A DNA stretch of 64,000 nucleotides from the sequence record OR699282.2; one strand, given 5' to 3'. A model generated the notes under the pieces. It was not told the DNA's origin. It did not search any database and saw only the letters and a program-made list of their open reading frames with translations. The DNA comes from Escherichia phage BAU.Micro_ELP-22. Numbering within the stretch: position 1 is the stretch's first letter; the number at the start of each line of letters is the position of its first letter. This document shows positions 12,898 through 27,499 of this stretch, piece after piece. Made by a program: the position numbers and the translations under genes.

Positions 12898-12904
12898 AAA
12901 GTAA

Positions 12905-13936: not shown

Positions 13937-13942
13937 AAACTA

Positions 13943-14002: not shown

Positions 14003-14019
14003 ACTGAGAGGAAAGAAAA

Positions 14020-14232: not shown

Positions 14233-14249
14233 TAGAAGGAGTACAGCTT

Positions 14250-14658: not shown

Positions 14659-14686
14659 AAATAATTGAAAAAGGGATTGACTCCGG

Positions 14687-14750
14687 TCAGTCCCTTTGCT
14701 ATTATATACGCATAGAAACAAATCAGCCCACAGGGTGCATAAATGTATCT
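14687..14750 (+). repeat. Repeated intergenic element, type A
   Basis: TTGACTCCGGTCAGTCCCTTTGCTATTATAT then CGCATAGAAACAAATCAGCCCACAGGGTGCATAAATGTATCT. Confidence 0.6.
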
Positions 14751-14790
14751 ATTGTTAGCTGGTGGCTAGTACTGAAAACTATTTTTAAAA

Positions 14791-14823
14791 AGTACTTGCA
14801 TTGTACTTAGAATCAAGTATAAT
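14791..14823 (+). promoter_or_regulatory. PeSL-type promoter driving non-coding element
   Basis: AGTACT 14791-14796, TTGCAT 14796-14801, TATAAT 14818-14823. Confidence 0.65.
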
Positions 14824-14830
14824 GTTTTAC

Positions 14831-14903
14831 ATCAGGACGGGGAACGAAACAAGTAACCCCGTTAAGTAGTCCAGGAGTAAGACATACGAAAACCTCCCCT
14901 GAT
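14831..14903 (+). ncRNA. Candidate small structured RNA (second copy)
   Basis: ATCAGGACGGGGAACGAAACAAGTAACCCCGTTAAGTAGTCCAGGAGTAAGACATACGAAAACCTCCCCTGAT; same layout as 3706-3780. Confidence 0.4.
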
Positions 14904-14911
14904 AAAAAAGA

Positions 14912-14940
14912 TTGACAATAGTTTGAAGTACTGATAAAAT
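14912..14940 (+). promoter_or_regulatory. sigma70-like promoter
   Basis: TTGACA 14912-14917, 17-bp spacer with AGTACT, TAAAAT 14935-14940. Confidence 0.5.
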
Positions 14941-14972
14941 AATCACATCAACTACTGATAAGGAAACATAAA

Positions 14973-15248
14973 ATGCGGATTCTACTGACAGCTAACGAAA
15001 TCGAACAAGTACTGACTACTAACCTGGAAGACTGGAAACGTGAAGCAGATATCCAGGCGGTTCAATGGCTTAACGATAAGTTAACGCCGGATGACTTAAG
15101 CAAGATTGTAGATCCTCAATTCTACGAAGATATTCACGACACCGCGTTAAGCGTCGAGGATGTACTAGATAAGCACTACATTGATACTGATTTGCAGGTT
15201 TACGGTCGTAAAAACTTTATCACTATTCACGATATTTACAATAATTAA
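14973..15248 (+). CDS. hypothetical protein (91 aa)
   Basis: ATG 14973, SD AAGGAA. Confidence 0.7.
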   Translation: MRILLTANEIEQVLTTNLEDWKREADIQAVQWLNDKLTPDDLSKIVDPQFYEDIHDTALSVEDVLDKHYIDTDLQVYGRKNFITIHDIYNN

Positions 15249-15249
15249 G

Positions 15250-15310
15250 TATTGACAAAGTATCTTAGTACTGTATAATAGTTTACATCGAGAGGGGGAA
15301 TGGTTCCCCT
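15250..15310 (+). promoter_or_regulatory. PeSL-like promoter cassette (identical 44-bp promoter, copy 1 of 3)
   Basis: TTGACA 15252-15257, TATAAT 15274-15279, hairpin GGGGGAATGGTTCCCC; same promoter at 15519 and 18096. Confidence 0.7.
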
Positions 15311-15334
15311 CCTAACTAAAAGAGAGAAATAAAA

Positions 15335-15517
15335 ATGGCTAAGTGCACTATCTGTAATAAAGAAATAGTATTAGTTCCAAGTGCCCGTGAACGTGCCGCT
15401 CGGTTCGGTGGCAAAGCGTCAGACTATACAAAAATGTTTACTGCCCATACAGCTTGCCAGGTAGCAAAACGTTCACAAGAAAGCGTAGAATTAATGCGTA
15501 AACTTTCCAAAAAATAA
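15335..15517 (+). CDS. small Cys-containing protein (60 aa)
   Basis: ATG 15335; CTICNKE ... HTACQ possible zinc-ribbon; SD-like AGAGAGA. Confidence 0.65.
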   Translation: MAKCTICNKEIVLVPSARERAARFGGKASDYTKMFTAHTACQVAKRSQESVELMRKLSKK

Positions 15518-15518
15518 G

Positions 15519-15582
15519 TATTGACAAAGTATCTTAGTACTGTATAATAGTTTACATCAAGTGAGGGGAAACGGTTCCCCTC
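15519..15582 (+). promoter_or_regulatory. PeSL-like promoter cassette (copy 2 of 3)
   Basis: TTGACA 15521-15526, TATAAT 15543-15548, hairpin GAGGGGAAACGGTTCCCCTC 15564-15582. Confidence 0.7.
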
Positions 15583-15605
15583 CTAACAAAGAGAGAGAAA
15601 TAAAA

Positions 15606-15929
15606 ATGGCTATGATCCTTACCCAGAAAGTGGAACTGAAAATTGTAACCTCCTTTGACATTAACGTTAATCGGTGGACTGATTCACACGGCAATACTTA
15701 CCACTCTTGCTACGTGTCTGCTTTAATTGGCGACCGCTGGGAAGACCTGGGACACGAAACCTTTACATACGGTTACGGTACACAAGGCGAATACACGGGC
15801 TTGGAGATCATTAAAGAAACCGTTATAGGTTTCAACCCGAAAGAAAAAGTTATTCACCGCATCGAGGAAGAGATCAACAAAGAAATAACAGTTCGCTACC
15901 ACGATGTAAAACGTAAGAAAGACATGTAA
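15606..15929 (+). CDS. hypothetical protein, early paralog family C (107 aa)
   Basis: Track ORF 15561 trimmed to ATG 15606; paralog of 8398..8721. Confidence 0.7.
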   Translation: MAMILTQKVELKIVTSFDINVNRWTDSHGNTYHSCYVSALIGDRWEDLGHETFTYGYGTQGEYTGLEIIKETVIGFNPKEKVIHRIEEEINKEITVRYHDVKRKKDM

Positions 15930-15943
15930 TAGAATCCATTTAA

Positions 15944-15980
15944 AGTACTATTTGACATTGCCCAGATAGTACTTTATAAT
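15944..15980 (+). promoter_or_regulatory. Class-II promoter
   Basis: AGTACT 15944-15949, TTGACA 15952-15957, 17-bp spacer with AGTACT, TATAAT 15975-15980. Confidence 0.65.
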
Positions 15981-16024
15981 AGACTCTAACTTGTAGTACT
16001 AACTTAACTAATAGGATGTATACC

Positions 16025-16420
16025 ATGATTACTAAATTCTACGCTACCCGTGAAGCTGCCCGTATTGTTGCACGCGAGGAAGGCGAAACATTTAAAGACA
16101 TGGGCAAAGATGCACCGAAAGGTCAACGCTGGGCCGTACAGTTCAAAGAGATCTCTGATATTGTGAATTCACCGGAGCCAGTACTAACAGCAGCAGAACT
16201 AAAACGAGCGGATTTACTGGCGTCAATACTTGATGCACAAGATGAGTTTATCGCTGATTCTGATATCAAAGTACAGACAAACCATACCGCATGGACTCAC
16301 GCGGATCACCTGGCAAACCTTAAGCGTCCAAGTGAACTGATTCGCAACCAGAAAGAGATCCGACACGACCGTAAGGGTAATCGTGTAACAGTATACAGTA
16401 AACGCCGCCAGGTTATCTAA
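16025..16420 (+). CDS. hypothetical protein, early paralog family B (131 aa)
   Basis: ATG 16025 (SD AGGA at 8 nt; alternative ATG 16016); paralog of 2837..3103. Confidence 0.65.
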   Translation: MITKFYATREAARIVAREEGETFKDMGKDAPKGQRWAVQFKEISDIVNSPEPVLTAAELKRADLLASILDAQDEFIADSDIKVQTNHTAWTHADHLANLKRPSELIRNQKEIRHDRKGNRVTVYSKRRQVI

Positions 16421-16441
16421 TAACTTGCAGTACTAACAACA

Positions 16442-16468
16442 CGGCGGGATCAGTTCCCGCCTTTTTTA
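16442..16468 (+). terminator. Rho-independent terminator
   Basis: GGCGGGA-TCAG-TTCCCGCC then TTTTTTA. Confidence 0.75.
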
Positions 16469-16481
16469 TAGGACAAACAAA

Positions 16482-16736
16482 ATGATTAAGGTTCAACTAT
16501 ATAAAGATAACATCTTACGGGTACACTATAAAGCACCACAGAGAATCATCACAAAGGCCGTACAGCTTGCTAATGAGTTTATTAATGGTAACCTATTACC
16601 TAGGAAGTTAAGCAACGGGAAACTGCGTGTAATCGACGTGGACACTAACAACAGGATAGTAATCGAGAACACAGGAAAGATAAACCTTTATGAGCATCAA
16701 CAATACAATAAGAAAATAAAACTAATATCACGTTGA
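16482..16736 (+). CDS. hypothetical protein (84 aa)
   Basis: ATG 16482; SD weak. Confidence 0.6.
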   Translation: MIKVQLYKDNILRVHYKAPQRIITKAVQLANEFINGNLLPRKLSNGKLRVIDVDTNNRIVIENTGKINLYEHQQYNKKIKLISR

Positions 16737-16790
16737 CAGTACTCAAATGTTTTAGTACTATATGTACATACCAACACGGGGAGAAACAAA

Positions 16791-17033
16791 ATGATTACTT
16801 TAGAAAAACGTATCAAAGAAACTACATCGCTGGTGGAACTGTTAACAGTACTCAAATGTAAAACTACTCGGTTTAGTACACCGGACTTTATTAATATGGT
16901 TGATGTTAACGGTCGTTATCGTATTGCAGTAGAACAAGGCACGGCAAAAGTATTCAGTACTAAAAACACTAAGGAAGTGATTCACGCGGTTAGTGTGAAA
17001 AAAGTGGTTGCCATTGATAGTAAAGTACTGTAA
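16791..17033 (+). CDS. hypothetical protein (80 aa)
   Basis: ATG 16791, SD GGGGAG. Confidence 0.65.
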   Translation: MITLEKRIKETTSLVELLTVLKCKTTRFSTPDFINMVDVNGRYRIAVEQGTAKVFSTKNTKEVIHAVSVKKVVAIDSKVL

Positions 17034-17064
17034 GATAGTTTCATTAACTCAAGGAGAACATGCA

Positions 17065-17649
17065 ATGCGTAATTATACTAAATTCATCCGTACCCTGTCA
17101 GAAATGGAAACCAACAAAGAGATCCTTTCAGCTTGTCGGTTAGCTGGCCTGGAGATCATCGGTGCTGGTTCTTCCCGTATAGTTTTCGCTTTAAATGATC
17201 GGTTAGTGATTAAGGTCGCGAATTGTGATGCGGGTGTAGAACAAAATGAAACTGAATGTAAGGTATGGAATTTTTTAGACTATGACCGCCCTCAGTTGAA
17301 ACAGTACTTTGCAAAGGTGCATATGCATTTATGCGATCCTGATAATATGTTTATCGTTATGGATCGGTTGAGTACTGCAAGCAAAGGCAGTGTGAAGCAC
17401 GTAAACGCGTGCAATGAATTAAAGTACAATATTAAACGTAATGCAATCGAACGCCAGCACCGCTTTGCTGATGCACTACAACACGTTGATGATACATTAT
17501 CAACACTAACGATAAGAGATATCAGAAAACAGAATATCGGCCAGGATCGTAATGGACTTATTAAAGTACTTGATTACGGTTTAACCAGCAATATCTGGAA
17601 TCAGTACTATAAAAAGCGTGATGTGGCAGCAAGTAAGGTAACACGATAA
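17065..17649 (+). CDS. minimal Ser/Thr protein kinase-like protein (194 aa)
   Basis: Track ORF 17008 trimmed to ATG 17065 (SD AAGGAG, 8 nt); Gly-rich loop GAGSSRIVF, Lys in VIKVAN, catalytic-loop-like RDIRKQNIG, DFG-like LDYG. Confidence 0.65.
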   Translation: MRNYTKFIRTLSEMETNKEILSACRLAGLEIIGAGSSRIVFALNDRLVIKVANCDAGVEQNETECKVWNFLDYDRPQLKQYFAKVHMHLCDPDNMFIVMDRLSTASKGSVKHVNACNELKYNIKRNAIERQHRFADALQHVDDTLSTLTIRDIRKQNIGQDRNGLIKVLDYGLTSNIWNQYYKKRDVAASKVTR

Positions 17650-17667
17650 AAAAGATTAAAAAAGGGA

Positions 17668-17746
17668 TTGACTCCGGTCAGTCCCTTTGCTATTATATAT
17701 CCATTGAGAGATAACTCACTGACCCATAGGGTGCGGAAGTGTATCT
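17668..17746 (+). repeat. Repeated intergenic element, type A
   Basis: TTGACTCCGGTCAGTCCCTTTGCTATTATAT then CATTGAGAGATAACTCACTGACCCATAGGGTGCGGAAGTGTATCT. Confidence 0.6.
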
Positions 17747-17785
17747 ATTATATAAGTATTCAGTACTGAAAACTATTTGATAAAA

Positions 17786-17850
17786 AGTACTTGCATTGTA
17801 CTTAGAATCAAGTATAATGTTTTATATCGAGAGGGGGAAATGGTTCTCCC
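17786..17850 (+). promoter_or_regulatory. PeSL-like promoter cassette
   Basis: AGTACT 17786-17791, TTGCAT 17791-17796, TATAAT 17813-17818, hairpin GGGGGAAATGGTTCTCCC 17833-17850. Confidence 0.7.
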
Positions 17851-17872
17851 TGGTATATTAAGGAATAAAATC

Positions 17873-18094
17873 ATGACTACAATGACTTGCATTTACGCTT
17901 CCAATCTTCTGAATGATGCGGCCTTTAATGTTGATTCAGAATATCAATGTTATCGGGATGAAAATAAAAAAGTTTTTGTAGTTGATAATAATGGTTTCCA
18001 TATTGAATTGCAATCCGGTTTCACTGGTGTTGATGGTAAATCAGTATGGGGCGTACAGGATGATAAAGGCACATATCATTTTAAACGTAATTAA
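17873..18094 (+). CDS. hypothetical protein (73 aa)
   Basis: Track ORF 17777 trimmed to ATG 17873; SD AAGGAA. Confidence 0.7.
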   Translation: MTTMTCIYASNLLNDAAFNVDSEYQCYRDENKKVFVVDNNGFHIELQSGFTGVDGKSVWGVQDDKGTYHFKRN

Positions 18095-18095
18095 G

Positions 18096-18156
18096 TATTG
18101 ACAAAGTATCTTAGTACTGTATAATAGTTTACATCAAGGGGAGAATAGTTCTCCCC
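18096..18156 (+). promoter_or_regulatory. PeSL-like promoter cassette (copy 3 of identical promoter)
   Basis: TTGACA 18098-18103, TATAAT 18120-18125, hairpin GGGGAGAATAGTTCTCCCC 18138-18156. Confidence 0.7.
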
Positions 18157-18180
18157 ACACCAATAAAAGGAAACATAATT

Positions 18181-18453
18181 ATGTCTAGCTACTCCGCTAC
18201 TATGATCATTAAAGATATGAACGGTAATCCTACTTCTGCTGGTGGATCATTTGGAAACATTAATTTAGATGGTCGGTTATCCATGCAATCAGCAATCGAT
18301 GCAGCGAAAGAAGTTTTTAAGAATGAATGTACTGTTAGTAAGCTGGATTATATGGGATTTGCTATCGAAAAAACTAATCGTTTTGTGAACTACAAAAAAC
18401 CATTGATGATTGATACTAACCTGAAAGCTAACGAAGTGGAGTACTTATTATGA
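18181..18453 (+). CDS. hypothetical protein (90 aa)
   Basis: ATG 18181, SD AAAGGAAA. Confidence 0.7.
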   Translation: MSSYSATMIIKDMNGNPTSAGGSFGNINLDGRLSMQSAIDAAKEVFKNECTVSKLDYMGFAIEKTNRFVNYKKPLMIDTNLKANEVEYLL

Positions 18454-18641
18454 CAGTTGAAGAAGTTAAAAAAGTACTGGCAGTACTACGCTATCATAAT
18501 CATTGCAAGGTGAAGAATGATCCTGATTATCTCGATTCATCCCTGGAAGAGGATACACTACAAGCAATAAGCCATATGCAAACATTAGCAAAGCGTATGA
18601 CTGAAAAGAACATGCCGGACTATATCGGAAATAAAATTTAA
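18450..18641 (+). CDS. hypothetical protein (63 aa)
   Basis: ATG 18450 overlaps upstream stop (ATGA). Confidence 0.6.
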   Translation: MTVEEVKKVLAVLRYHNHCKVKNDPDYLDSSLEEDTLQAISHMQTLAKRMTEKNMPDYIGNKI

Positions 18642-18643
18642 AA

Positions 18644-18710
18644 AGTACTTGCATTGTAGTTAGATTAACGTATAATGTTTTATATCGAGAGGGGGAAATG
18701 GTTTCCCCTC
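18644..18710 (+). promoter_or_regulatory. PeSL-like promoter cassette
   Basis: AGTACT 18644-18649, TTGCAT 18649-18654, TATAAT 18671-18676, hairpin GAGGGGGAAATGGTTTCCCCTC 18687-18710. Confidence 0.7.
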
Positions 18711-18728
18711 AAGTCCAGGAGATACACC

Positions 18729-18992
18729 ATGAACACTATCGAAATCACTATCAATGCACACGTATACGACAACGTAGTACTGCAAACTACTATGACCGCT
18801 AATGATACCAGTACTTTGCGGAATACTGTTATTAGTGCCGTATGTGCCGCTATCGGTGATGTCGCCCTGGAAAATGCAAAACACGTAAACGATGGTTTCA
18901 CTATGTGCAAACGTGATAACGCAAAACATATCATCGTAGAAGGTTACGGCGGTGTAGAATATAATGTTTATATGAAAAAAGTACTTGCATAA
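18729..18992 (+). CDS. hypothetical protein (87 aa)
   Basis: Track ORF 18675 trimmed to ATG 18729 (SD AGGAGA); C-terminal codons overlap -35 of next PeSL. Confidence 0.7.
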   Translation: MNTIEITINAHVYDNVVLQTTMTANDTSTLRNTVISAVCAAIGDVALENAKHVNDGFTMCKRDNAKHIIVEGYGGVEYNVYMKKVLA

Positions 18993-19041
18993 TAACTAAA
19001 ACAAAGTATAATGTTTTGCATAGGGGGAGATATCCTCCCCC
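18980..19041 (+). promoter_or_regulatory. PeSL-like promoter cassette
   Basis: AGTACT 18980-18985, TTGCAT 18985-18990, TATAAT 19007-19012, hairpin GGGGGAGATATCCTCCCCC 19023-19041. Confidence 0.7.
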
Positions 19042-19059
19042 ACTAAAAGGAGTAATAAA

Positions 19060-19284
19060 ATGGCTAACTTTGATGAACTGATGCGGGAAGTAGCTACCCT
19101 GGCAGAAGAAAAGAAATCATTCGATTCTATCTATAGCACCGCTCACCGTGATTCAGTACTGGCATGTAACCAGGATCAAAAAGATGAACTAATCGCCACC
19201 TATCATGAAGCATGGAAGTACTACCGACAATGGGAGAAAGAAGAAAGAGAGTCTACCATTGACGGCCTCAATAATCTAATCTAA
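19060..19284 (+). CDS. hypothetical protein (74 aa)
   Basis: ATG 19060, SD AAGGAG. Confidence 0.7.
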   Translation: MANFDELMREVATLAEEKKSFDSIYSTAHRDSVLACNQDQKDELIATYHEAWKYYRQWEKEERESTIDGLNNLI

Positions 19285-19296
19285 AAGTTTTATTTC

Positions 19297-19333
19297 AGTA
19301 CTATTGACATAGCTTGATAGTACTGATGTAATA
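19297..19333 (+). promoter_or_regulatory. Class-II promoter
   Basis: AGTACT 19297-19302, TTGACA 19304-19309, AGTACT in spacer, -10-like GTAATA. Confidence 0.55.
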
Positions 19334-19360
19334 ACTTTACTAACTACAAGGGGAAACATA

Positions 19361-19618
19361 ATGGAACAGTTCACACAATATCGGGTAAATCCTCAAGCTA
19401 TGGCCTACGTAGAAGACCATAAAACATTACCAGTACTAACACCAATTAAAGGCCATATCTATCGTGCAATGTCATGGAATACCGCCCAGGATAGATATAC
19501 TACCGCTGGCGTGGGTATGTATTGCGGGAATGGTGAATGGTTTGATCCAAATAATCCGGTAGCCATTGACAGTACTGAAAAAATGAAATGGGCCGACTAC
19601 ATCGAAGATATTTCATAA
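19361..19618 (+). CDS. hypothetical protein (85 aa)
   Basis: ATG 19361, SD GGGGAAA. Confidence 0.65.
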   Translation: MEQFTQYRVNPQAMAYVEDHKTLPVLTPIKGHIYRAMSWNTAQDRYTTAGVGMYCGNGEWFDPNNPVAIDSTEKMKWADYIEDIS

Positions 19619-19625
19619 AAACTAT

Positions 19626-19686
19626 TTGACAGTACTAACCAGTAATGTATAATGTTTTACATAGAGCGGGGGAATAGTTCTCCCGC
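19626..19686 (+). promoter_or_regulatory. PeSL-like promoter cassette
   Basis: TTGACA 19626-19631, TATAAT 19648-19653, hairpin GCGGGGGAATAGTTCTCCCGC 19666-19686. Confidence 0.7.
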
Positions 19687-19708
19687 CAATAGTTTGGAGT
19701 AAAACATT

Positions 19709-19909
19709 ATGTCTATCGCTATCGCCCTGGTTGAAGTACTGAAAGAAGCTAAAGCCAACCAGATCGACGTAAAGATCCAGGAACTACAAAACGGCGTAAT
19801 CGGCTGTACTTGTACCGCTGGTGGAGCGGCAGACTATCGAGAACACGAATCACTCGAATCACTGGTTCGGTATCTTACCATGATCGTTGATGATTGGAGA
19901 ATCATCTAA
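19709..19909 (+). CDS. hypothetical protein (66 aa)
   Basis: ATG 19709, SD GGAG. Confidence 0.65.
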   Translation: MSIAIALVEVLKEAKANQIDVKIQELQNGVIGCTCTAGGAADYREHESLESLVRYLTMIVDDWRII

Positions 19910-19930
19910 CAAAAAAGAATAAAAAAGGGA

Positions 19931-20004
19931 TTGACTCCGGTCAGTCCCTTTGCTATTATATACGCATAGACAAAAACTAGCCCACAGGGTGCATAGGTGT
20001 ATCC
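19931..20004 (+). repeat. Repeated intergenic element, type A
   Basis: TTGACTCCGGTCAGTCCCTTTGCTATTATAT then CGCATAGACAAAAACTAGCCCACAGGGTGCATAGGTGTATCC. Confidence 0.6.
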
Positions 20005-20070
20005 AAAATATATAGTTAATAACGGTGAGTAACTATCTGCTGGTGGAGTGAAAACTATTAATAAAAAAGT

Positions 20071-20100
20071 ATTGACAAAGTATATCAGTACTGCGATAAT
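20071..20100 (+). promoter_or_regulatory. sigma70-like promoter
   Basis: TTGACA 20071-20076, spacer with CAGTACTG, GATAAT 20095-20100. Confidence 0.55.
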
Positions 20101-20153
20101 GTATCTCGTAGGGCGGCAATGGTGCAACGGCCCACAAAGTTAGGAGATTCAAA

Positions 20154-20486
20154 ATGAGTACTTCAATCGCTATCGTTAAAGCTTTCATCCGTACCAATGT
20201 TTCATCTGTATTCATCGACGGACTGGATCGTGAAGTAGAATACTCAATCATTATCGCACAGACTGCAAACGGTGCTCGGTATATCCTCAATGATAGTGAA
20301 GCAAATCACTACTACTTCACTAAAGCTACTGGCTTTAAACGCATCGATGCCGATGTAGTATACGCTAAGATGAATAAGCTGGTAGACAAGATTAACGCTA
20401 AAGGCACTATTGATTTACAGTACTGGACCGAAACCGATCCAGAATATGGATCTCACCGCTACCTGAATCCAGGTATCAAAATGTAA
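20154..20486 (+). CDS. hypothetical protein (110 aa)
   Basis: ATG 20154, SD AGGAGA. Confidence 0.7.
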   Translation: MSTSIAIVKAFIRTNVSSVFIDGLDREVEYSIIIAQTANGARYILNDSEANHYYFTKATGFKRIDADVVYAKMNKLVDKINAKGTIDLQYWTETDPEYGSHRYLNPGIKM

Positions 20487-20488
20487 AA

Positions 20489-20554
20489 AGTACTTGCATA
20501 GTACTTAGATTCATGTATAATGTTTTACATAGAGAGGGGGAAATGGTTCTCCCT
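20489..20554 (+). promoter_or_regulatory. PeSL-like promoter cassette
   Basis: AGTACT 20489-20494, TTGCAT 20494-20499, TATAAT 20516-20521, hairpin GAGGGGGAAATGGTTCTCCCTC 20533-20554. Confidence 0.7.
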
Positions 20555-20575
20555 CCTAAATTAAGGAGTTTTATC

Positions 20576-20977
20576 ATGACCTTCTCAATCACTTCCTTCG
20601 CTGACGTTTTAGTACTGGCTCGGACTTTTGGTAAAGATGCACTGGAGTACGCTGTAAGTAATGGCACTATCCAACCGGAACAGTGCCGCATCATTGGAAA
20701 CTGCAAACGTTGGGCGGTATCCAATACTATTGCACTGGAAAACTTCCACGATGGCAACAATGAATATTCTGTTGATGTAGTATTCGAAGCCGTTGATCTC
20801 GGCGGTATCTATAATACTAACCTGAATGATGTGCGTATCGTTCGCACTGGGTTCGGTGCTTATGATGTATCTATTCGTGAAGCTATGAACACCGGATACA
20901 TTAGCAAGGACTTACTTGCTCACATCATGCAGCTGTGTACGGAACGTAACGAAGCACGCACTATCTTAGGACTGTAA
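20576..20977 (+). CDS. hypothetical protein (133 aa)
   Basis: Track ORF 20513 trimmed to ATG 20576; SD AAGGAG. Confidence 0.7.
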   Translation: MTFSITSFADVLVLARTFGKDALEYAVSNGTIQPEQCRIIGNCKRWAVSNTIALENFHDGNNEYSVDVVFEAVDLGGIYNTNLNDVRIVRTGFGAYDVSIREAMNTGYISKDLLAHIMQLCTERNEARTILGL

Positions 20978-21045
20978 GCGTTACACATCACCAAACATCA
21001 TAGGCCGCTCTCTAGCGGCCTTAACTATATCAGGAGTACATACAC

Positions 21046-21255
21046 ATGATCTATACAGTATACAGCGTCCTAGGCACTATTGCAGGCGTACATGATAACG
21101 TCGATAGTGCTATGCGTACAGTACTGCAACAGGTTCCACTAAAGCCTAAGACCATTAAGCAGATGACAGCACGACTAACCAGGGCGACCGATGGCGTGGA
21201 AGTATGGCAGGACTACGGGGATACACAGATAATCGTTAGCGTAACGAAGGATTAA
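21046..21255 (+). CDS. hypothetical protein (69 aa)
   Basis: ATG 21046, SD AGGAG; last gene before the compositional shift. Confidence 0.65.
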   Translation: MIYTVYSVLGTIAGVHDNVDSAMRTVLQQVPLKPKTIKQMTARLTRATDGVEVWQDYGDTQIIVSVTKD

Positions 21256-21505
21256 TGCGTAAAGGGATCTAGTACTGATTCAGAAAAAAGTCAAGGCGTT
21301 TTTTAAATTATGCGTTAAAAAAATGCATAGGTAATCCCTTGACTTTTTTGAAATAAAAGGGATTGGACTATGGCAAAATGCGTAGGGGGCTAAAGGGCGG
21401 GTAACCTTTAGCGACTTCGATAAAGGGGTATTACGAATAAAATGTTATTGATTTTTTATACGAATCGTATATTATAGGATTGATATTATTTTTAATGGAG
21501 TCCCT
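21256..21505. promoter_or_regulatory. Boundary intergenic region with nested inverted repeats; probable array promoter
   Basis: AAAAAAGTCAAGG (21283-21296) / CCTTGACTTTTTT (21337-21350); GCTAAAGG..CCTTTAGC hairpin near 21388-21412; TTGATT 21448-21453 plus TATTAT-like -10. Confidence 0.45.
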
Positions 21506-21703
21506 ATGCGTATTTTAACTAAAGAACAGCACCACGAAAGACTTATCAATAACATGGCTATGATAATGTATAAGTCCCATGACCGTGGTATTGCCTATAA
21601 GCGTGAATTAATTATGGCACTATTCATTGGAACTAACTTTCAGGAAAGGTATGTCAACGATTGGATTTGGTATTTAATTGAAGATATAACGAGTAAACTA
21701 TGA
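21506..21703 (+). CDS. small tandem family F1 paralog (65 aa)
   Basis: ATG 21506, SD GGAG; C-terminal FIGTNFQERYV..WI..LI..I core. Confidence 0.65.
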   Translation: MRILTKEQHHERLINNMAMIMYKSHDRGIAYKRELIMALFIGTNFQERYVNDWIWYLIEDITSKL

Positions 21704-21900
21704 AAATGCGTATTTTAAATAAAGAAGAATATCAATCACTGTTACGTAAAAACTTCACAAAGATTTATAATACAGACACACACGTAGAACGAATGGAGTT
21801 ATACCTTTTGATTACTTTGGGAACTAACTATCAGGAAAGATGGGTGATTCAATATATGGATACATTGAAAAATAAAATATTGTCCACGAGGAAACAATGA
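21700..21900 (+). CDS. F1 paralog (66 aa)
   Basis: ATGA stop/start overlap; LGTNYQERWV core. Confidence 0.65.
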   Translation: MKMRILNKEEYQSLLRKNFTKIYNTDTHVERMELYLLITLGTNYQERWVIQYMDTLKNKILSTRKQ

Positions 21901-22106
21901 AAACTATAACACGAACCCAATCATACGGTCTTATCTTGAAATACATGGACTTAATGGTGGATATCAGCAAAGACCTTCCTAAAACTGAAATTGAAGTTGC
22001 AAGAGCAGAGATCCGCATGTTGGCTGTACTGAACACAAACCATCAGGAAGATTATGTTGAAGAATGGATTCGATTTTTAATAGAAGATATTAAGAGTAAA
22101 CTATGA
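21897..22106 (+). CDS. F1 paralog (69 aa)
   Basis: ATGA overlap; LNTNHQEDYV core. Confidence 0.65.
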   Translation: MKTITRTQSYGLILKYMDLMVDISKDLPKTEIEVARAEIRMLAVLNTNHQEDYVEEWIRFLIEDIKSKL

Positions 22107-22318
22107 TTATTATAGAAAACTCATATCAATATACTGAACGCATCGCTGCCAGACAACTTGAAATCCTCATAATATACGAAGAGACTTCTGATTTAAACTT
22201 AGCCGAGGTATTGGAAAATGATATACTATTGGGTGCATTCTTAGGAACAGACTATCAGAAGTATTATGAGGAAAAGTATTTGTCATCTCTTGAGAAATAT
22301 ATCAGGAGCAAATTATGA
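22103..22318 (+). CDS. F1 paralog (71 aa)
   Basis: ATGA overlap; LGTDYQKYY core. Confidence 0.65.
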   Translation: MIIIENSYQYTERIAARQLEILIIYEETSDLNLAEVLENDILLGAFLGTDYQKYYEEKYLSSLEKYIRSKL

Positions 22319-22527
22319 TTTTTTTAACACCAGAAGAATATAAGAAACGTTTCAATTCCGCACAGGGTGAAATCTTACTTATATACCTTTCAAATGCAGA
22401 CCTTAACTTATCAAGGGTATTAGAAAAAGATTTACTTATGGGTGCATTCCTTGATACAGACTTTCAGGTGTATTATGTAGGGGAATACTTAATTGCACTT
22501 CAGAATTATATCAGGAGTAAACTATGA
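22315..22527 (+). CDS. F1 paralog (70 aa)
   Basis: ATGA overlap; LDTDFQVYYV core; close to 22103..22318. Confidence 0.65.
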   Translation: MIFLTPEEYKKRFNSAQGEILLIYLSNADLNLSRVLEKDLLMGAFLDTDFQVYYVGEYLIALQNYIRSKL

Positions 22528-22742
22528 AACATTTAAGTAACTCCGAGAAGAATAAAATTATCGTTGCTGCAATAAACAAATATTTTACACTTCCTCACAC
22601 AGAAGGTTTATGTGTAAGGGAACACAGGATAAACACCACCGATATACGCATGATGGCTGTACTGGGGACGAACTTTCAGGAAGAGTATGTTGTTGCACAC
22701 ATAGTTGCCCTCACTGATCTAATAAGGGACAAATGTAAATGA
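22524..22742 (+). CDS. F1 paralog (72 aa)
   Basis: ATGA overlap; LGTNFQEEYV core. Confidence 0.65.
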   Translation: MKHLSNSEKNKIIVAAINKYFTLPHTEGLCVREHRINTTDIRMMAVLGTNFQEEYVVAHIVALTDLIRDKCK

Positions 22743-22996
22743 AACACTTAACTGATGATGAATTTGAAACTATAATTCGTAAACTAACCCCCATCACAAG
22801 GATAGTCTACGGTGACCCCAGCCTTACATGGAACCAAATGCGAGCTAAAGTTAATGAGCTATGGTTGCTGTACTTTATGGGGACTCAATATCAAGATAAG
22901 TTTTGCACAGAATATATCGAACAATTAACGAATGTTATACAGGATAAACTAGATGATTATTTGCTCACAAAACATGAAGACTTTATCAGGAGTTGA
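22739..22996 (+). CDS. F1 paralog (85 aa) with C-terminal extension
   Basis: ATGA overlap; MGTQYQDKF core; stop displaced so the reading frame runs into the next gene. Confidence 0.6.
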   Translation: MKHLTDDEFETIIRKLTPITRIVYGDPSLTWNQMRAKVNELWLLYFMGTQYQDKFCTEYIEQLTNVIQDKLDDYLLTKHEDFIRS

Positions 22997-23225
22997 GTAT
23001 CAAACTGCCCTATTCTCTTTAATCCATGCCCTTAGAAAAAACAATGCCTTATATGGTGCACCTGAAGTGGATGTTATCAACGGTGAACTTTATCTTATGA
23101 AATTCATTGGAACAAACTATCAAGATCTGTTCATTCAACGATACTTATCAGCATTAAGAAACCAAATCCAATATAAAACCCAGAGAGCCAAAAAAGAATG
23201 GAATAAACAATGCGACACAGACTAA
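22953..23225 (+). CDS. F1 paralog (90 aa; start uncertain, alt ATG 22974)
   Basis: IGTNYQDLFI core. Confidence 0.6.
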   Translation: MIICSQNMKTLSGVEYQTALFSLIHALRKNNALYGAPEVDVINGELYLMKFIGTNYQDLFIQRYLSALRNQIQYKTQRAKKEWNKQCDTD

Positions 23226-23458
23226 ATCACAAAATGTATTGTAAACTATTACAGACACTGGCACAGAAACACTATGACACGGTATCTGGAATATTACCCT
23301 ATGATATCATGCGTTTACTTCACTGTGAGGCCGAGATGCTTGTACTGATGACAGGCACTGATAAAAACGCAATTGCCAAATCAATAGATATGTTCATCGA
23401 AGCACACTGCCAACACATGAGAACCGAAATCTGGAGGAAAGAGAATGATAATCCTTAA
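23210..23458 (+). CDS. F1 paralog, divergent (82 aa; start uncertain)
   Basis: MTGTDKNAIAKSIDMFI core variant. Confidence 0.55.
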   Translation: MRHRLNHKMYCKLLQTLAQKHYDTVSGILPYDIMRLLHCEAEMLVLMTGTDKNAIAKSIDMFIEAHCQHMRTEIWRKENDNP

Positions 23459-23660
23459 TGAGTATCAGTATCATTGGAGGTTACAAACTATCAAATCAAA
23501 AGTGTATAGTATTGTGTTAAACAAATCTATTGCACAAGAGGACAAATGTGTTATAATAGCTGAAATGAAGTTGGGTGCTTTCGTAGGGACAAACTATCAA
23601 AACATCTACACTGACGTATTGTTAAGTGCCTTACGTAACAAGGTGGTATCCAAAATATGA
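23445..23660 (+). CDS. F1 paralog (71 aa)
   Basis: VGTNYQNIY core. Confidence 0.65.
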   Translation: MIILNEYQYHWRLQTIKSKVYSIVLNKSIAQEDKCVIIAEMKLGAFVGTNYQNIYTDVLLSALRNKVVSKI

Positions 23661-23875
23661 GAAATTTACAAGGCTTTGAATACATCAGACTCCTGAAAAC
23701 ATGTGGAAGCAGAAGGAGAATGATATCAAGCGATAAGAGCATCCAAGCTAACCTTAAGCACGCACTAGTAACTGAACTCTATGTAGGTGCACTCTTAGGC
23801 ACAAACTATCAACAAATGTATGTAGATCTATGGATTGACGCTCTACAGAAAGAGGTTAAAAGTAAATGCAAATGA
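23657..23875 (+). CDS. F1 paralog (72 aa)
   Basis: ATGA overlap; LGTNYQQMYV core. Confidence 0.65.
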   Translation: MRNLQGFEYIRLLKTCGSRRRMISSDKSIQANLKHALVTELYVGALLGTNYQQMYVDLWIDALQKEVKSKCK

Positions 23876-24084
23876 TTAATTTAAGTAAAGACGAATTTTA
23901 TGTTATACTGGCGAAAACTTATCCAGCACGTAAGGCCGTTTATGATAGTCACATTATTGAACCCTCAAAGAAGTTGATTTTAGTAAATGAGATAAAGATG
24001 CTTTCAGTCTTAGGAACAAACTATCAAGAGAATGCTGTACTGATGTTAATTGATGCCCTCCAGAGAGAGGTTAAACGTAAATGA
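23866..24084 (+). CDS. F1 paralog (72 aa)
   Basis: LGTNYQENAV core. Confidence 0.65.
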   Translation: MQMINLSKDEFYVILAKTYPARKAVYDSHIIEPSKKLILVNEIKMLSVLGTNYQENAVLMLIDALQREVKRK

Positions 24085-24311
24085 AAATGATTAATTTAAC
24101 TTACCATGAATATCAAAAACGTTTAAATGCATCCAGAGATATAAGGATTCAAATATTCAATAACAAAAAATTGAAACCTGATACCAGAAGAATCAAAATC
24201 ATAGAAGCCGTGTTGTGTAACTTCCTAGGGACTAACTATCAGGAAGGTAAGGTAGAAAACTATCTTATAGAACTCATGAATAGTATTGAAAATAAATGTA
24301 AGGGTAATTAA
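24081..24311 (+). CDS. F1 paralog (76 aa)
   Basis: ATGA overlap; LGTNYQEGKV core. Confidence 0.65.
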   Translation: MKMINLTYHEYQKRLNASRDIRIQIFNNKKLKPDTRRIKIIEAVLCNFLGTNYQEGKVENYLIELMNSIENKCKGN

Positions 24312-24312
24312 C

Positions 24313-24552
24313 ATGAAAATGATTAAATTATCTCAAGCAAAATATAAAGAACGCCTGGTGAAAATTGCACCTGGACTTAATGAAATCCATCACGGAGAAG
24401 TCATTAAACACGGAAATAAGATGATTATGAAACTTGAGTTAAAGGTGGGTGCATTCATAGGAACAAACTATCAGGAGTATTATGTAGATGAATACATAAT
24501 CGCACTTAAGAGATACATTGGAAGAAAACTATATATACAAACTAAAGAATAG
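24313..24552 (+). CDS. F1 paralog (79 aa)
   Basis: Track ORF 24286 trimmed to ATG 24313; IGTNYQEYYV core; shares about 50-bp junction repeat with next gene. Confidence 0.6.
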   Translation: MKMIKLSQAKYKERLVKIAPGLNEIHHGEVIKHGNKMIMKLELKVGAFIGTNYQEYYVDEYIIALKRYIGRKLYIQTKE

Positions 24553-24581
24553 TATTGAAAATAAATGTAAGGGTATTTAAC

Positions 24582-24845
24582 ATGAAAATGATTAATTTAA
24601 GTAAAGATGAATATACCGAGCGTATGACAAAAATTACGCACAAACGTAATACAATCTATCACAACCCAGAAATTCAACACAGTAAGAAAATGATTATGAT
24701 GCGTGAGTTAAAGATGGGTGTATTCTTAGGAACAAACTATCAAGATACAGAAGTAAATCGCTTAATCGCGGAGTTACTACTGGAAATCAGAGGTAAGCTG
24801 TACTTTCATCAAATGACCCAACCACTGAGGTGTACTGATCGATGA
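24582..24845 (+). CDS. F1 paralog (87 aa)
   Basis: Track ORF 24555 trimmed to ATG 24582; LGTNYQDTEV core. Confidence 0.6.
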   Translation: MKMINLSKDEYTERMTKITHKRNTIYHNPEIQHSKKMIMMRELKMGVFLGTNYQDTEVNRLIAELLLEIRGKLYFHQMTQPLRCTDR

Positions 24846-25093
24846 ATGCGATGAATATTGTGAATAACATCAGATTAGCAGAAAGATTTGATAGAATTGG
24901 GGAAGCACTGAGAAGATACGATAAAGAATATGGTCATTTGAGCTTTTCTATAGAAAAGAGATATGAACTTGAAGCAGAGTTTAAAATGCAGAGTCTCTTA
25001 GGCACACAGTATCAAAACCAATATATTCAAACTTGGATTGATTGTTTAATCCAGACAATTTACGTAAGAAACATTAAATGCAAAATGAAATGA
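24842..25093 (+). CDS. F1 paralog (83 aa)
   Basis: ATGA overlap; LGTQYQNQYI core. Confidence 0.65.
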   Translation: MNAMNIVNNIRLAERFDRIGEALRRYDKEYGHLSFSIEKRYELEAEFKMQSLLGTQYQNQYIQTWIDCLIQTIYVRNIKCKMK

Positions 25094-25332
25094 TATACTT
25101 AACACATGATGAGTTAACAGAAAGACTAGATAAATCCAAAAGACTTACAAATAAACTTCCTCACAACACAAATCAAACCCCAGCAGAAAGGAGTGCAGAA
25201 GTTTTATTCCAAAGATTACCATACCTTCTTGGAACTGATAGGCAAGAGTATCACATTGAACGTATAATTAAATATCTCAAAATTACTATTAAGGAAAAAG
25301 TAAATGCAAATGAAATACTTAACAGACGATGA
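25078..25332 (+). CDS. F1 paralog (84 aa; start uncertain)
   Basis: LGTDRQEYHI core; close paralog of 25304..25555. Confidence 0.6.
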   Translation: MQNEMIYLTHDELTERLDKSKRLTNKLPHNTNQTPAERSAEVLFQRLPYLLGTDRQEYHIERIIKYLKITIKEKVNANEILNRR

Positions 25333-25555
25333 GTTAAAAGAACGACTAATTAAATCCAGAAAACTTACAAATCAACTTCCAAACGACACAAACAAGTCAC
25401 ATGCCGAAAGGAGTGCAGAAGTTTTATACATTCAACTCATGTACTTTCTTGGCACTGACAGACAAGAGTATTACATTGAAAGTATGCTTCGATATCTTAA
25501 ATTCTCTATAAAGGAAAAGATACATGCTCAAGAATTTAAAAATCCTAACAGTTAA
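25304..25555 (+). CDS. F1 paralog (83 aa; start uncertain)
   Basis: LGTDRQEYYI core; shares HAERSAEVL with previous gene. Confidence 0.6.
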   Translation: MQMKYLTDDELKERLIKSRKLTNQLPNDTNKSHAERSAEVLYIQLMYFLGTDRQEYYIESMLRYLKFSIKEKIHAQEFKNPNS

Positions 25556-25766
25556 TGAATATCATACGATTGTAATGAAAACTAATAGTGCAATTTCTAA
25601 AAAATCAAACCCCAAGTACATACTGGAACACACATTTGAAGAACGTCAATTAGCTTTAGTTGAAGCAAAACTTCTTGCACTCCTAGGAACAAACTATCAA
25701 GAAGAATACATCAGAAAACTAATATACCTTTTAACTAAACATATAAGAAAAAGAAAAAATGCATGA
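25524..25766 (+). CDS. F1 paralog (80 aa)
   Basis: LGTNYQEEYI core. Confidence 0.6.
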   Translation: MLKNLKILTVNEYHTIVMKTNSAISKKSNPKYILEHTFEERQLALVEAKLLALLGTNYQEEYIRKLIYLLTKHIRKRKNA

Positions 25767-25993
25767 AACACTTGACAGATGATGAACATGGGCTTATAGT
25801 AATGGATGTAATCAACATCGAATACAAAAAGTTGATACGCTACCGTTGTTATGAAGATAAGCAACTCGTTCTAGCAGAACAGAAGTTGTTTCGACTCTTA
25901 AACACAAACTTCCAAGCACAATACGAAGAATCGTATATGTACCTTTTGGCGAGGAAAGCAAAAAGAGATTATGAAAATTTTAAGCAAAGGTGA
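25763..25993 (+). CDS. F1 paralog (76 aa)
   Basis: ATGA overlap; LNTNFQAQY core. Confidence 0.65.
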   Translation: MKHLTDDEHGLIVMDVINIEYKKLIRYRCYEDKQLVLAEQKLFRLLNTNFQAQYEESYMYLLARKAKRDYENFKQR

Positions 25994-26186
25994 TTCAGTA
26001 ATATTACTTATAGAGAGTTCAAGTAAATTCTTAAACATAACACTGTCTGATATAGATGAAGATGACAAAGAAGTACTGAGAGCAGATTTAAGAGTACTGT
26101 TACATATCGGAACAAACCTACAAGAAGAATATGTAGAGTGCTACATCAATGAACTTAAAGAATTAGTACTGAGAACATGCAAATGA
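25971..26186 (+). CDS. F1 paralog (71 aa)
   Basis: IGTNLQEEYV core. Confidence 0.6.
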   Translation: MKILSKGDSVILLIESSSKFLNITLSDIDEDDKEVLRADLRVLLHIGTNLQEEYVECYINELKELVLRTCK

Positions 26187-26419
26187 AAATCCTTTCACCA
26201 AGTGAATACCACGAACTATTAAGTAGTTTAATTCTAAAATTGTATATAGCAAAGACCACAGATTTACCTGATGAAGAAAAAAATATTCTAATGAGTGAAA
26301 TCTATGTTAATTCTACCCTAGGGACTAACTATCAAGAATGTAATATTAATGATTACATCAAAGAACTAAAAAGGTTTATCCAATGCAAATGCGAATCATT
26401 ACCGAAACAGAATACCTAA
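26177..26419 (+). CDS. F1 paralog (80 aa)
   Basis: LGTNYQECNI core; close paralog of next gene. Confidence 0.65.
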   Translation: MQMKILSPSEYHELLSSLILKLYIAKTTDLPDEEKNILMSEIYVNSTLGTNYQECNINDYIKELKRFIQCKCESLPKQNT

Positions 26420-26625
26420 CAATCATAAATGGACTGTTTTTGAAGTTATTTGCCATTAACACATCAAAACTACCAGATACTGATAAAATTATTAAGTTAA
26501 ATGAAATCTATGTTCAAGCTACACTGGGAACTAACTATCAAGAAGCCAATGTGTATAATTACATTAATACACTCAAAAGGGTAATAAAATTAAAATGCAC
26601 AAACAGCCAATACACAAACCACTAG
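26383..26625 (+). CDS. F1 paralog (80 aa)
   Basis: LGTNYQEANV core. Confidence 0.65.
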   Translation: MQMRIITETEYLTIINGLFLKLFAINTSKLPDTDKIIKLNEIYVQATLGTNYQEANVYNYINTLKRVIKLKCTNSQYTNH

Positions 26626-26825
26626 GAACAGCAGAATACATTGAACTCATGGCATTACACTTCTCATCCTTTCAGAAACTTAGGCGAGAATCAAAGAATG
26701 ATTTAGAATATACCATCAGAGGTTCCGATTTAAGAATGCTTCTCACCCTAGACACAGATTCCCAAGAGCGATTTGTCAATGAGCATATTAGAGCACTTTT
26801 AATGGAAATTCAAAGTAAACTATGA
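26595..26825 (+). CDS. F1 paralog (76 aa)
   Basis: LDTDSQERFV core. Confidence 0.6.
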   Translation: MHKQPIHKPLGTAEYIELMALHFSSFQKLRRESKNDLEYTIRGSDLRMLLTLDTDSQERFVNEHIRALLMEIQSKL

Positions 26826-27037
26826 AGATAATATCAAACCAAGAGTACTTGGCACTATTCAGGAAGAATAATCACAAATATATGGCACTTGATTCAAGAA
26901 CTGATATAAGTGAACTTGAAAAAAATCTTTTGCGTTCAGATATGATAGTACTGACACTCTTAGGAACACAGCATCAAGAGAGAACTGTTAATTCACACAT
27001 AGGGATTCTTATGCAGATAGTACAGGAAAAGATATGA
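26822..27037 (+). CDS. F1 paralog (71 aa)
   Basis: ATGA overlap; LGTQHQERTV core. Confidence 0.65.
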   Translation: MKIISNQEYLALFRKNNHKYMALDSRTDISELEKNLLRSDMIVLTLLGTQHQERTVNSHIGILMQIVQEKI

Positions 27038-27255
27038 GAATCATAACACAACAAGATATTCTTAAGTTCACAAGGGTTCATGCATCTGAATTTGATGCTA
27101 TATTATCAAAAAGTTACAACAACCCTTATACACAAGATGTACATTACAGTGAATTATGGATGTATATACTTTTAGGTACAAATAAGCAAGAGCAAGCCGT
27201 ACAGAAGTATTTGACAGCTTTACGTGATGCTACTGCTAATGGAGTACATGTTTAA
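27034..27255 (+). CDS. F1 paralog (73 aa)
   Basis: ATGA overlap; LGTNKQEQAV core. Confidence 0.65.
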   Translation: MRIITQQDILKFTRVHASEFDAILSKSYNNPYTQDVHYSELWMYILLGTNKQEQAVQKYLTALRDATANGVHV

Positions 27256-27256
27256 T

Positions 27257-27499
27257 ATGAAAGTACTGACAGAACTAGAAATGTATCATAGATTTAATAA
27301 GTACTATCATTTACTTAAGCCTATACAGAGGATTAAATGTCCATTTGAAGAGAAACAGGTTTTAATCTATGAGCACAAGTTCTTTGTATCATTAGGTACA
27401 GATCAACAAGAGTACTATTTGACGTTGTACTTGATTACATTAATAGATTTAATTCACTATAAAACCAAACAAGCTAATAAAGAGAAATATGAAAACTAA
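27257..27499 (+). CDS. F1 paralog (80 aa)
   Basis: Track ORF 27224 trimmed to ATG 27257; LGTDQQEYYL core. Confidence 0.6.
   Translation: MKVLTELEMYHRFNKYYHLLKPIQRIKCPFEEKQVLIYEHKFFVSLGTDQQEYYLTLYLITLIDLIHYKTKQANKEKYEN

Follow-up and report, generated by a model that had tools for sequence, protein, structure and literature searches.

A run of 27 small genes occupies positions 21506-27499 of a 64,000-nucleotide stretch of DNA from Escherichia phage BAU.Micro_ELP-22 (sequence record OR699282.2), and these genes encode a single protein family, here called F1. We refer to the whole stretch as the window; unless stated otherwise, all features described below lie on its plus strand. Sequence comparison places the window at the left end of the genome of a jumbo coliphage, an Asteriusvirus (PBECO4/121Q/phAPEC6-like). 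Megablast with positions 21000-28000 matched 35 phage records, all of them Escherichia/Salmonella jumbo phages of the genus Asteriusvirus, and the closest relative was phAPEC6 (95% DNA identity over 97% of the query).

Composition of the F1 array

The original prediction described 27 tandem paralogs on one strand, and this description holds: all of the open reading frames (ORFs) are present at their coordinates on the plus strand, with no gene between them. A profile built from the 27 members recovers each of them with E values of 2e-18 to 9e-27, a result that is circular, as the profile was built from the same set. PHROG 4148, an independent model of unknown function, matches 26 of the 27 members (best E 1.2e-26), with gene 13 spanning profile positions 1-72 of 74, and phrog_28039 also matches 13 members. 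The array contains 26 in-frame copies of the motif [LIVMF][GND]T[NDQ]x[QN], against a mean of 0.3 and a maximum of 2 in 200 shuffles; in all six frames of the other 58 kb it occurs six times, and one of these occurrences marks a true outlying F1 member.

Other parts of the prediction have to be modified. The shared C-terminal core was confirmed, but the N-termini, which had been taken to diverge, also belong to the family: in the alignment, homology covers the whole protein of ~70 residues, including the hydrophobic core and a common N-terminal start of the form M-[KR]-[IH]-[LI]-[TS]-x-x-[EQ]-[YF]. The predicted lengths of 65-90 aa are approximate: the proteins have 65-96 aa if the longest ORFs are taken and 64-85 aa with the likely starts. 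Contrary to the claim that most junctions are ATGA overlaps, only 12 of the 26 are of this type; the remainder are overlaps of 10-44 nt or gaps of 1-35 nt, according to the start codon chosen.

The genes are arranged as follows, with E values taken from the profile search with the model built from the 27 members. Gene 1 (21506-21703, 65 aa, E 1.9e-20) has GGAG 6 nt 5' of its ATG. ATGA overlaps are found at gene 2 (21700-21900, 66 aa, alternative start 21706, E 5.2e-20), gene 3 (21897-22106, 69 aa, E 3.1e-22), gene 4 (22103-22318, 71 aa, E 1.2e-19), which shares 53% identity with gene 5, gene 5 itself (22315-22527, 70 aa, E 2.1e-22), gene 6 (22524-22742, 72 aa, E 1.4e-24) and gene 7 (22739-22996, 85 aa, E 5.8e-26). 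Gene 8 (22953-23225, 90 aa, E 8.3e-21) has a likely start at 22974. The most divergent member, gene 9 (23210-23458, 82 aa, E 2.1e-18), carries a 7-residue insertion in the motif (MTGTDKNAIAKS) and is followed by gene 10 (23445-23660, 71 aa, E 7.2e-25), gene 11 (23657-23875, 72 aa, E 3.3e-26), again with an ATGA overlap, gene 12 (23866-24084, 72 aa, alternative start 23872, E 8e-24) and gene 13 (24081-24311, 76 aa, alternative start 24087, E 1.1e-25), the member chosen for modelling.

In the second half of the run, gene 14 (24286-24552, E 9.4e-27) probably starts at the ATG at 24313, giving 79 aa, and gene 15 (24555-24845, E 4.7e-26) at the ATG at 24582, giving 87 aa. Next come gene 16 (24842-25093, 83 aa, E 7.7e-20), gene 17 (25078-25332, 84 aa, alternative start 25090, E 4.8e-23), gene 18 (25304-25555, 83 aa, E 3.3e-24), gene 19 (25524-25766, 80 aa, E 1.3e-21), gene 20 (25763-25993, 76 aa, E 6.2e-19, ATGA overlap), gene 21 (25971-26186, 71 aa, E 2.6e-21), gene 22 (26177-26419, 80 aa, alternative start 26183, E 1.2e-26), gene 23 (26383-26625, 80 aa, E 4.7e-24) and gene 24 (26595-26825, 76 aa, E 8.4e-20). 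Gene 25 (26822-27037, 71 aa, E 2.3e-22) and gene 26 (27034-27255, 73 aa, E 5.2e-22) both show ATGA overlaps. The last gene of the run, gene 27 (27224-27499, E 1.5e-22), has a likely ATG at 27257 and would then encode 80 aa, which corresponds to the 243-nt form annotated in phage SP27.

Predicted fold of the F1 proteins

The F1 products are modelled as soluble proteins of ~70 residues with a compact four-helix fold. The AlphaFold2 model of gene 13, based on the alignment of the 27 paralogs, is all-alpha, with helices at residues 6-15, 17-24, 31-45 and 52-71 (pLDDT 96.3, pTM 0.80), and none of the F1 proteins shows transmembrane or signal character. The conserved columns of the alignment are M1, L4, E8, L13, E40, L47, G48, T49, N50, Q52, E53, V56, I60, L63, I67 and K70; the hydrophobic ones show helical spacing, and G-T-N-Y-Q-E forms the turn between helices 3 and 4. 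A one-residue bridge connects residue 2 to the invariant T49 in the DSSP string of the model. We infer that the GTNYQE motif is part of the scaffold, in which the Gly would stop helix 3, the bridge would hold the N-terminal strand and N/D...E would form a capping box. Substitutions between orthologs avoid the core and motif columns. Net charge varies widely, with isoelectric points (pI) from 4.45 to 9.82 (median 8.7) and seven of the 27 proteins acidic (pI below 5.5).

Database searches with F1 sequences yielded nothing consistent in Pfam, NCBIfam or the PDB. PADLOC gave only two single-member matches at chance level (E about 1e-3), BFVD returned Asteriusvirus paralogs only, and no Rfam RNA family was detected over 19-30 kb. 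An identity as helix-turn-helix (HTH), zinc-ribbon or other nucleic-acid-binding proteins was rejected, as no such family or fold matched, and so was an identity as Im7/Im9-like colicin/pyocin DNase immunity proteins, again for lack of a match.

Relation to the downstream F2 family

Between 27489 and about 56000 lie at least 42 members of a second family, F2, whose proteins share the pattern EE-x-FQ-x-S. F1 had been proposed as the short form of this family, and there are two points of contact: a helix follows an aromatic-Gln pair in either family, and four further, diverged F1 members are interspersed in the F2 array. The latter form two tandem pairs outside the 27-gene run, one at 28800-29012 (70 aa, LGSIAQD motif, E 2.2e-5) and 28961-29248 (95 aa, LGTKDQE motif, E 8.9e-8), and the other, inside the F2 array, at 42003-42221 (72 aa, VGSNKQD motif, E 3.9e-6) and 42199-42390 (63 aa, LGTQYQE motif, E 4.2e-12).

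Profile comparison argues against kinship, however. The F1 profile hidden Markov model (HMM) found no F2 member and the F2 HMM found no F1 member, and hhalign gave probabilities of only 0.14% for the core alignment and 0.19% for the full-length alignment (E 0.3-0.4). The models also fall into different fold classes: a short F2 member is predicted, at pLDDT 73, to have five beta strands and main helices at 66-75 and 84-100, with the FQ pair inside a short helix, whereas in the all-alpha F1 model GTNYQ lies in the turn that links helix 3 to helix 4. Profile similarity between the two families is thus absent, and F1 matches a known small-protein family only formally, through PHROG 4148, whose function is unknown. 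We regard a relationship of short and long forms as extremely improbable.

Position of the array next to the terminal repeat

Positions 1-21407 of the window constitute the left direct terminal repeat (DTR) of the phage genome, which lies outside the gene family and provides the context of the array. This assignment is based on three observations. Base 1 of the window aligns to base 1 of vB_Ec-M-J, a terminally resolved genome; the right physical ends of both vB_Ec-M-J and fEgEco12 finish in ...GGGCGGGTAACCT, which corresponds to position 21407 of the window; and both relatives have DTRs of similar extent, annotated at 1..21525 (21,525 bp) in vB_Ec-M-J and measured as 20,993 bp in fEgEco12, where it was confirmed by PhageTerm and restriction digests (PMC13070987). 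The array is therefore the first block of unique DNA, and gene 1 starts 99 bp beyond the end of the repeat. A sharp compositional boundary immediately before the array had already been recognized, and it was found again as a drop in GC content from 0.44-0.47 to 0.32 over ~300 bp at 21.2-21.5 kb; this boundary is the end of the DTR.

A conserved non-coding leader (21256-21505) extends from the last DTR gene to gene 1 and contains the repeat end at 21407. The leader is 97% identical among three phages, whereas the protein encoded by the adjacent gene 1 shares only 58% identity between the window and vB_Ec-M-J. The leader may hold a cis-acting signal, for instance the one at which the terminase cuts. 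Within it lie the physical genome end, ...GCGTAGGGGGCTAAAGGGCGGGTAACCT, at 21407 and an inverted repeat, AATCCCTT...AAGGGATT, at ~21341-21372. At the extreme left terminus of the window, positions 62-90 consist of a tandem 10-bp unit, GTAATCAAAA, with one copy fewer than in vB_Ec-M-J.

Expression signals

A consensus scan identified a candidate sigma70-type promoter for the array at 21448-21475 (TTGATT-16-TATTAT), located 41 bp beyond the repeat end and about 30 bp 5' of gene 1. The element is kept at the same place in vB_Ec-M-J, phAPEC6 and ph0011, that is, in four phages including that of the window; the relatives carry a TTGACT -35 hexamer, and the element takes the form TTGAC[T]-16-TATAAAAT or TATATTAT. 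Promoter-like sites (at least 10 of 12 matches) on the plus strand number four in the 6-kb array versus 39 in the 21-kb DTR, where 11 of the 39 are perfect TTGACA-16/17-TATAAT sites and the minus strand has eight. A candidate internal promoter, an 11/12 match at 25772-25800 within gene 20, is probably due to chance, because it is absent in ph0011 and is kept only where the gene is 99-100% identical. The scan found no convincing intrinsic terminator inside the array.

Coupling signals are embedded in the coding sequence. The frequent gene end ...I-R-S-K-L-stop is encoded by ATCAGGAGTAAACTATGA, which also supplies the next gene with its Shine-Dalgarno site and start codon; the C-terminal ...R-S-K-L-stop can thus be read as the codon image of AGGAGTAAACTATGA, and part of the C-terminal conservation would reflect dual coding for translational coupling. 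Given one conserved candidate promoter, few internal sites, no convincing terminator and these coupling signals, the predicted single long transcription unit is supported, and it is plausible that the host polymerase reads the array early as one polycistronic unit.

In phages SPO1 (gp37-60) and T5 (first-step-transfer region), many small early genes lie at the genome end behind strong host-type promoters. This description fits the DTR of the window (1-21407), with its 39 promoter-like sites, and the DTR has a layout similar to that of the pre-early or host-takeover modules that T5 and SPO1 carry in their terminal repeats. It does not fit the array, which starts outside the repeat, at 21506, and in which a single family of genes stands behind essentially one promoter. 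In phage CBB, a relative, the region presumed to be early and to serve host takeover is marked by RpoD-like promoters (PMC5259590).

Evolution of the copies

The 27 copies share a mean pairwise identity of only 24.8% (range 11-61%), and adjacent copies are more alike than the average pair (30.9% versus 24.8%; permutation p<1e-4). Repeats at the DNA level are still detectable for just two young pairs, genes 14/15 (Tandem Repeats Finder, TRF, 24254-24742, period 269, 77% match) and genes 17/18 (TRF 25083-25518, period 220), the latter with 61% amino acid identity. The greater likeness of neighbors, together with the two visible duplications, supports the predicted origin by tandem duplication, which must have been local and, for most copies, long ago. 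Concerted evolution, the alternative that had been named along with it, was rejected: copies from nine phages group by slot, not by genome.

Across these nine phages, the main run comprises 25-29 genes in a conserved slot order. An extra gene follows gene 6 in five of the nine, and genes 14, 18 or 22 are missing in some: gene 14 is absent in vB_Ec-M-J, ph0011 and WPEC5, and gene 22 in SP27, UE-S1 and SD-15_S21. Slot 8 is occupied by alleles of only 62-63% identity in phAPEC6, ph0011 and UE-S1, and slot 16 by alleles of 41-45% identity in phAPEC6, UE-S1, PBECO4 and SD-15_S21, and these divergent alleles (41-63%) adjoin neighbors that are 100% identical. Slots are thus gained, lost or swapped for distant alleles between otherwise near-identical phages.

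Pooled pairwise comparison with vB_Ec-M-J (NG86) gave a ratio of nonsynonymous to synonymous divergence (dN/dS) of 0.38 with dN 0.089 for the array (n=27), of 0.16 with dN 0.020 for the terminal-repeat genes (n=47) and of 0.33 with dN 0.124 for the genes downstream of the array, mostly F2 (n=48). Between neighboring genes dS ranged from 0 to 1.0, a spread that indicates a recombination mosaic. The F1 genes are real genes that evolve fast, turn over and are under purifying but relaxed selection.

These patterns bear on the idea that the copies merely fill the genome, that is, that they are largely redundant tandem duplicates with little individual function, kept because a larger capsid needs more DNA. 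The idea follows the size ratchet model of capsid and genome growth (Hua et al. 2017, mBio, PMC5646251), and it would account for the variation in copy number from 25 to 29, for whole genes that come and go and for a dN/dS that is relaxed relative to the DTR genes. The copies are old (mean 25% identity), however, and yet all retain open frames, the core and the motif; a dN/dS of 0.38 is still purifying; slot order is conserved across nine phages; and the family persists as dispersed copies in a second genus. Moreover, the ratchet argues from headful packaging, and this logic is weakened by the ends of Asteriusvirus genomes, which are fixed terminal repeats of ~21 kb and not headful-packaged. 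We consider genome filling an improbable explanation, although the model would gain support if the copies prove dispensable.

Another explanation is that the F1 proteins serve the phage itself, either in a hetero-oligomeric assembly or as small nucleic-acid-binding regulators of the switch from early to middle expression. Translationally coupled operons often encode subunits in fixed ratio, the ~35-copy zinc-ribbon expansion of Bacillus phage G has been suggested to consist of transcription factors or DNA-binding proteins (PMC7824862), and the median pI of 8.7 points in the same direction. The spread of pI values down to 4.45, with seven acidic members, and the failure to detect any HTH, zinc-ribbon or other nucleic-acid-binding family or fold argue against regulators of this kind, and the differences in copy content between near-identical phages are hard to square with an obligate multi-subunit complex. 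We give this explanation little credence.

Distribution beyond this genome

An exhaustive profile search of 1.84 billion representative proteins found F1 in only 82 clusters, all of them small proteins except for one of 121 aa and one of 269 aa. With the F1 consensus, tblastn against the phage collection matched 35 Asteriusvirus records and 10 Klebsiella Alcyoneusvirus records (RaK2/K64-1) and nothing else, and none of 5,426 complete RefSeq E. coli genomes matched the array by megablast. Many F1 sequences carry the database name 'hypothetical protein [Escherichia coli]' and come from contigs of 340-360 kb (e.g. P0001, P0035, P0068), which look like whole Asteriusvirus genomes within assemblies of E. 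coli isolates; contamination, a carrier state or pseudolysogeny could be the cause.

RaK2 has about a dozen F1 members, which are shorter and scattered singly or in groups of two or three genes; the first of them lie directly 3' of its region of spaced small genes. One-to-one orthology between the RaK2 and Asteriusvirus copies is not resolvable, because identity between the genera (30-39%) is no higher than that between paralogs. In some proteins the F1 domain is an N-terminal module fused to other domains, namely in RaK2 ORF362 and ORF372 (L003 19956-20363 and 23639-23989) and in the 269-aa protein P0190 of phages EC.P1 and UB. The two RaK2 proteins share a C-terminal domain of ~55 aa that is apparently related between them, with similar motifs by eye; the partner in EC.P1/UB is a domain of ~180 aa, which is a separate gene in RaK2 (ORF380) and is absent from the window. 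Apart from PHROG 4148 on the F1 part, these fusion proteins have no Pfam or PHROG annotation.

These fusions count in favor of reading the F1 domain as an adaptor, in which a polar cluster (E8, E40, T49, N50, Q52, E53) would dock all paralogs on one common partner, and variable faces or fused C-terminal domains would bring different cargos to it. Several of the polar positions are indeed as conserved as the core, and the fused domains in RaK2 and EC.P1/UB are unrelated. In the model, however, the helix cap and the turn explain the same residues equally well, and the fused domains have no annotated function. An adaptor of this kind appears quite improbable to us.

Possible functions of the F1 family

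The reading we tentatively favor, which we hold to be plausible if somewhat short of probable, is that F1 is an early, non-virion multigene family with a fixed scaffold and variable surfaces whose members most likely bind host targets, in takeover or counter-defense. The conserved residues would form the scaffold, consisting of the hydrophobic core and the L-G-T-N-Y-Q-E turn, which would terminate helix 3, cap helix 4 and form the bridge to the N-terminal strand; the exposed faces and net charge would be free to vary. Host sigma70 RNA polymerase would read the block early as one polycistronic mRNA from the promoter at 21448-21475, perhaps joined by read-through from the terminal repeat, and translation of the genes would be coupled. 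The products would be non-virion proteins that act on the host, forming a panel of small binders on one scaffold, each for a different host or defense protein, and would be comparable in phages to the terminal multigene families that large eukaryotic DNA viruses carry; this last step is the weakest. With respect to virions, gp467-gp489 are absent from the main text of the phAPEC6 paper, including its virion mass-spectrometry table (PMC7247149), which is a weak indication.

Several points weigh against this reading. Virion proteomics easily misses small proteins, and the literature searched holds no expression, interaction or phenotype data on F1 members no transcriptome of an Asteriusvirus or RaK2 and no relevant study of paralog arrays in phages. 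No fold link was found between F1 and a known anti-defense, immunity or takeover protein. The AlphaFold model was built on an alignment of paralogs only, and the structural role of GTNYQE was read from the DSSP string and column conservation. Pooled dN/dS is below 1 and hence gives no direct sign of positive selection, and the pairwise values are confounded by overlapping frames and recombination mosaicism. Finally, many phage operons are tightly packed and have ATGA overlaps, and neither feature implies a function on its own.

A more specific version, which we consider unlikely, is a counter-defense arsenal in which each four-helix paralog neutralizes a different host immune effector or toxin, so that the array would resemble a viral 'polyimmunity' locus. 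Cassette-like gain, loss and allele swapping would then track the defense repertoire of the hosts. Bacterial polyimmunity loci and the colicin DNase immunity proteins Im7/Im9 (four-helix proteins of ~85 aa) are tandem diverged proteins on one scaffold that neutralize different toxins, and the F1 proteins resemble Im7/Im9 in size and in their all-helical class. If true, the array would be to phages what the terminal multigene families are to poxviruses and African swine fever virus (ASFV), built on a fold without known relatives.

In these eukaryotic viruses, host range and immune evasion are the tasks of such families, which include MGF110/360/505 in ASFV and the ankyrin and Bcl-2-like families in poxviruses. 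The F1 array is similar in that diverged paralogs (mean 25% identity) lie in tandem near a genome end, 99 bp past a 21.4-kb repeat, and in that copy number and alleles vary between isolates (25-29 copies and slot alleles of 41-63% identity in nine phages). It differs in having no sequence or fold relationship to these families, and its role in host interaction is a hypothesis.

Within phages, the zinc-ribbon family of Bacillus phage G (~35 copies; Iyer et al. 2021, PMC7824862) is likewise a case of dozens of copies of one small domain, of unknown function, in one giant genome. F1 proteins have four helices and no metal ligands, however, the two phage groups are unrelated, and the F1 genes are strictly contiguous, co-oriented and situated beside the terminal repeat.

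The existence of the array is already known, since a gene array in the same genus was mentioned in one sentence by Hua et al. (2017, mBio, PMC5646251), who read it as tandem duplication, and the point was repeated in the phAPEC6 paper (PMC7247149). Very probably the locus in question is this one or that of the neighboring F2 array, but the mention does not specify which array is meant and gives no coordinates, family definition, structure or function; moreover, it calls the genes 'very similar', whereas the F1 copies analyzed here average 25% identity. As far as the searched literature shows, the definition of the family, the fold model and the exact position relative to the terminal repeat are new, as are the slot-wise turnover, the presence in RaK2-like phages and the rejection of a link between F1 and F2.

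Of the roughly 350 kb of an Asteriusvirus genome, about 35 kb is taken up by the two arrays, with F1 contributing about 6 kb and F2 about 29 kb. Should the F1 proteins turn out to be early, target-specific binders, the array would amount to a natural collection of about 30 variants, ready for screening against host defense systems and all built on a single scaffold that is very small and confidently folded; it would also help to explain the extra DNA of jumbo phages. Whichever reading holds, the question lends itself to experiments, because the array has been located in the first unique DNA and lies behind one conserved promoter.

Other features of the window

The DTR is densely filled with small, spaced genes, most of them behind a near-perfect sigma70 promoter that often has a TG-extended -10 element. 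The sequence GGGATTGACTCCGGTCAGTCCC occurs there in three identical copies (14673-14694, 17664-17685 and 19927-19948), with none expected by chance. Around the third copy, at 19924-19951, lies a terminator-like hairpin with a TTGACT -35 hexamer in its stem, followed by a TATTAT -10; the arrangement recurs in vB_Ec-M-J, and a terminator and the next promoter appear to be fused in this one element.

The palindrome CAGTACTG is present in 60 copies in the window against 0.69 expected, with none between 21127 and 37210. The density of AGTACT is 6.4/kb in the DTR and 3.7/kb at 37-64 kb but only ~1.2-1.3/kb over the F1 array and the initial 10 kb of F2. Some copies of CAGTACTG lie directly 5' of promoter -10 elements and many lie within ORFs; the palindrome could be the site of a regulator or of a modification, or a recombination signal. 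Downstream of the arrays, inspection by eye suggested enzyme-like motifs in two genes: NPPY in 60770-61291, as in N6-adenine DNA methyltransferases, and the H-x-G-H-like sequence GRVNPVHRGH in 61288-61821, as in nucleotidyltransferases.

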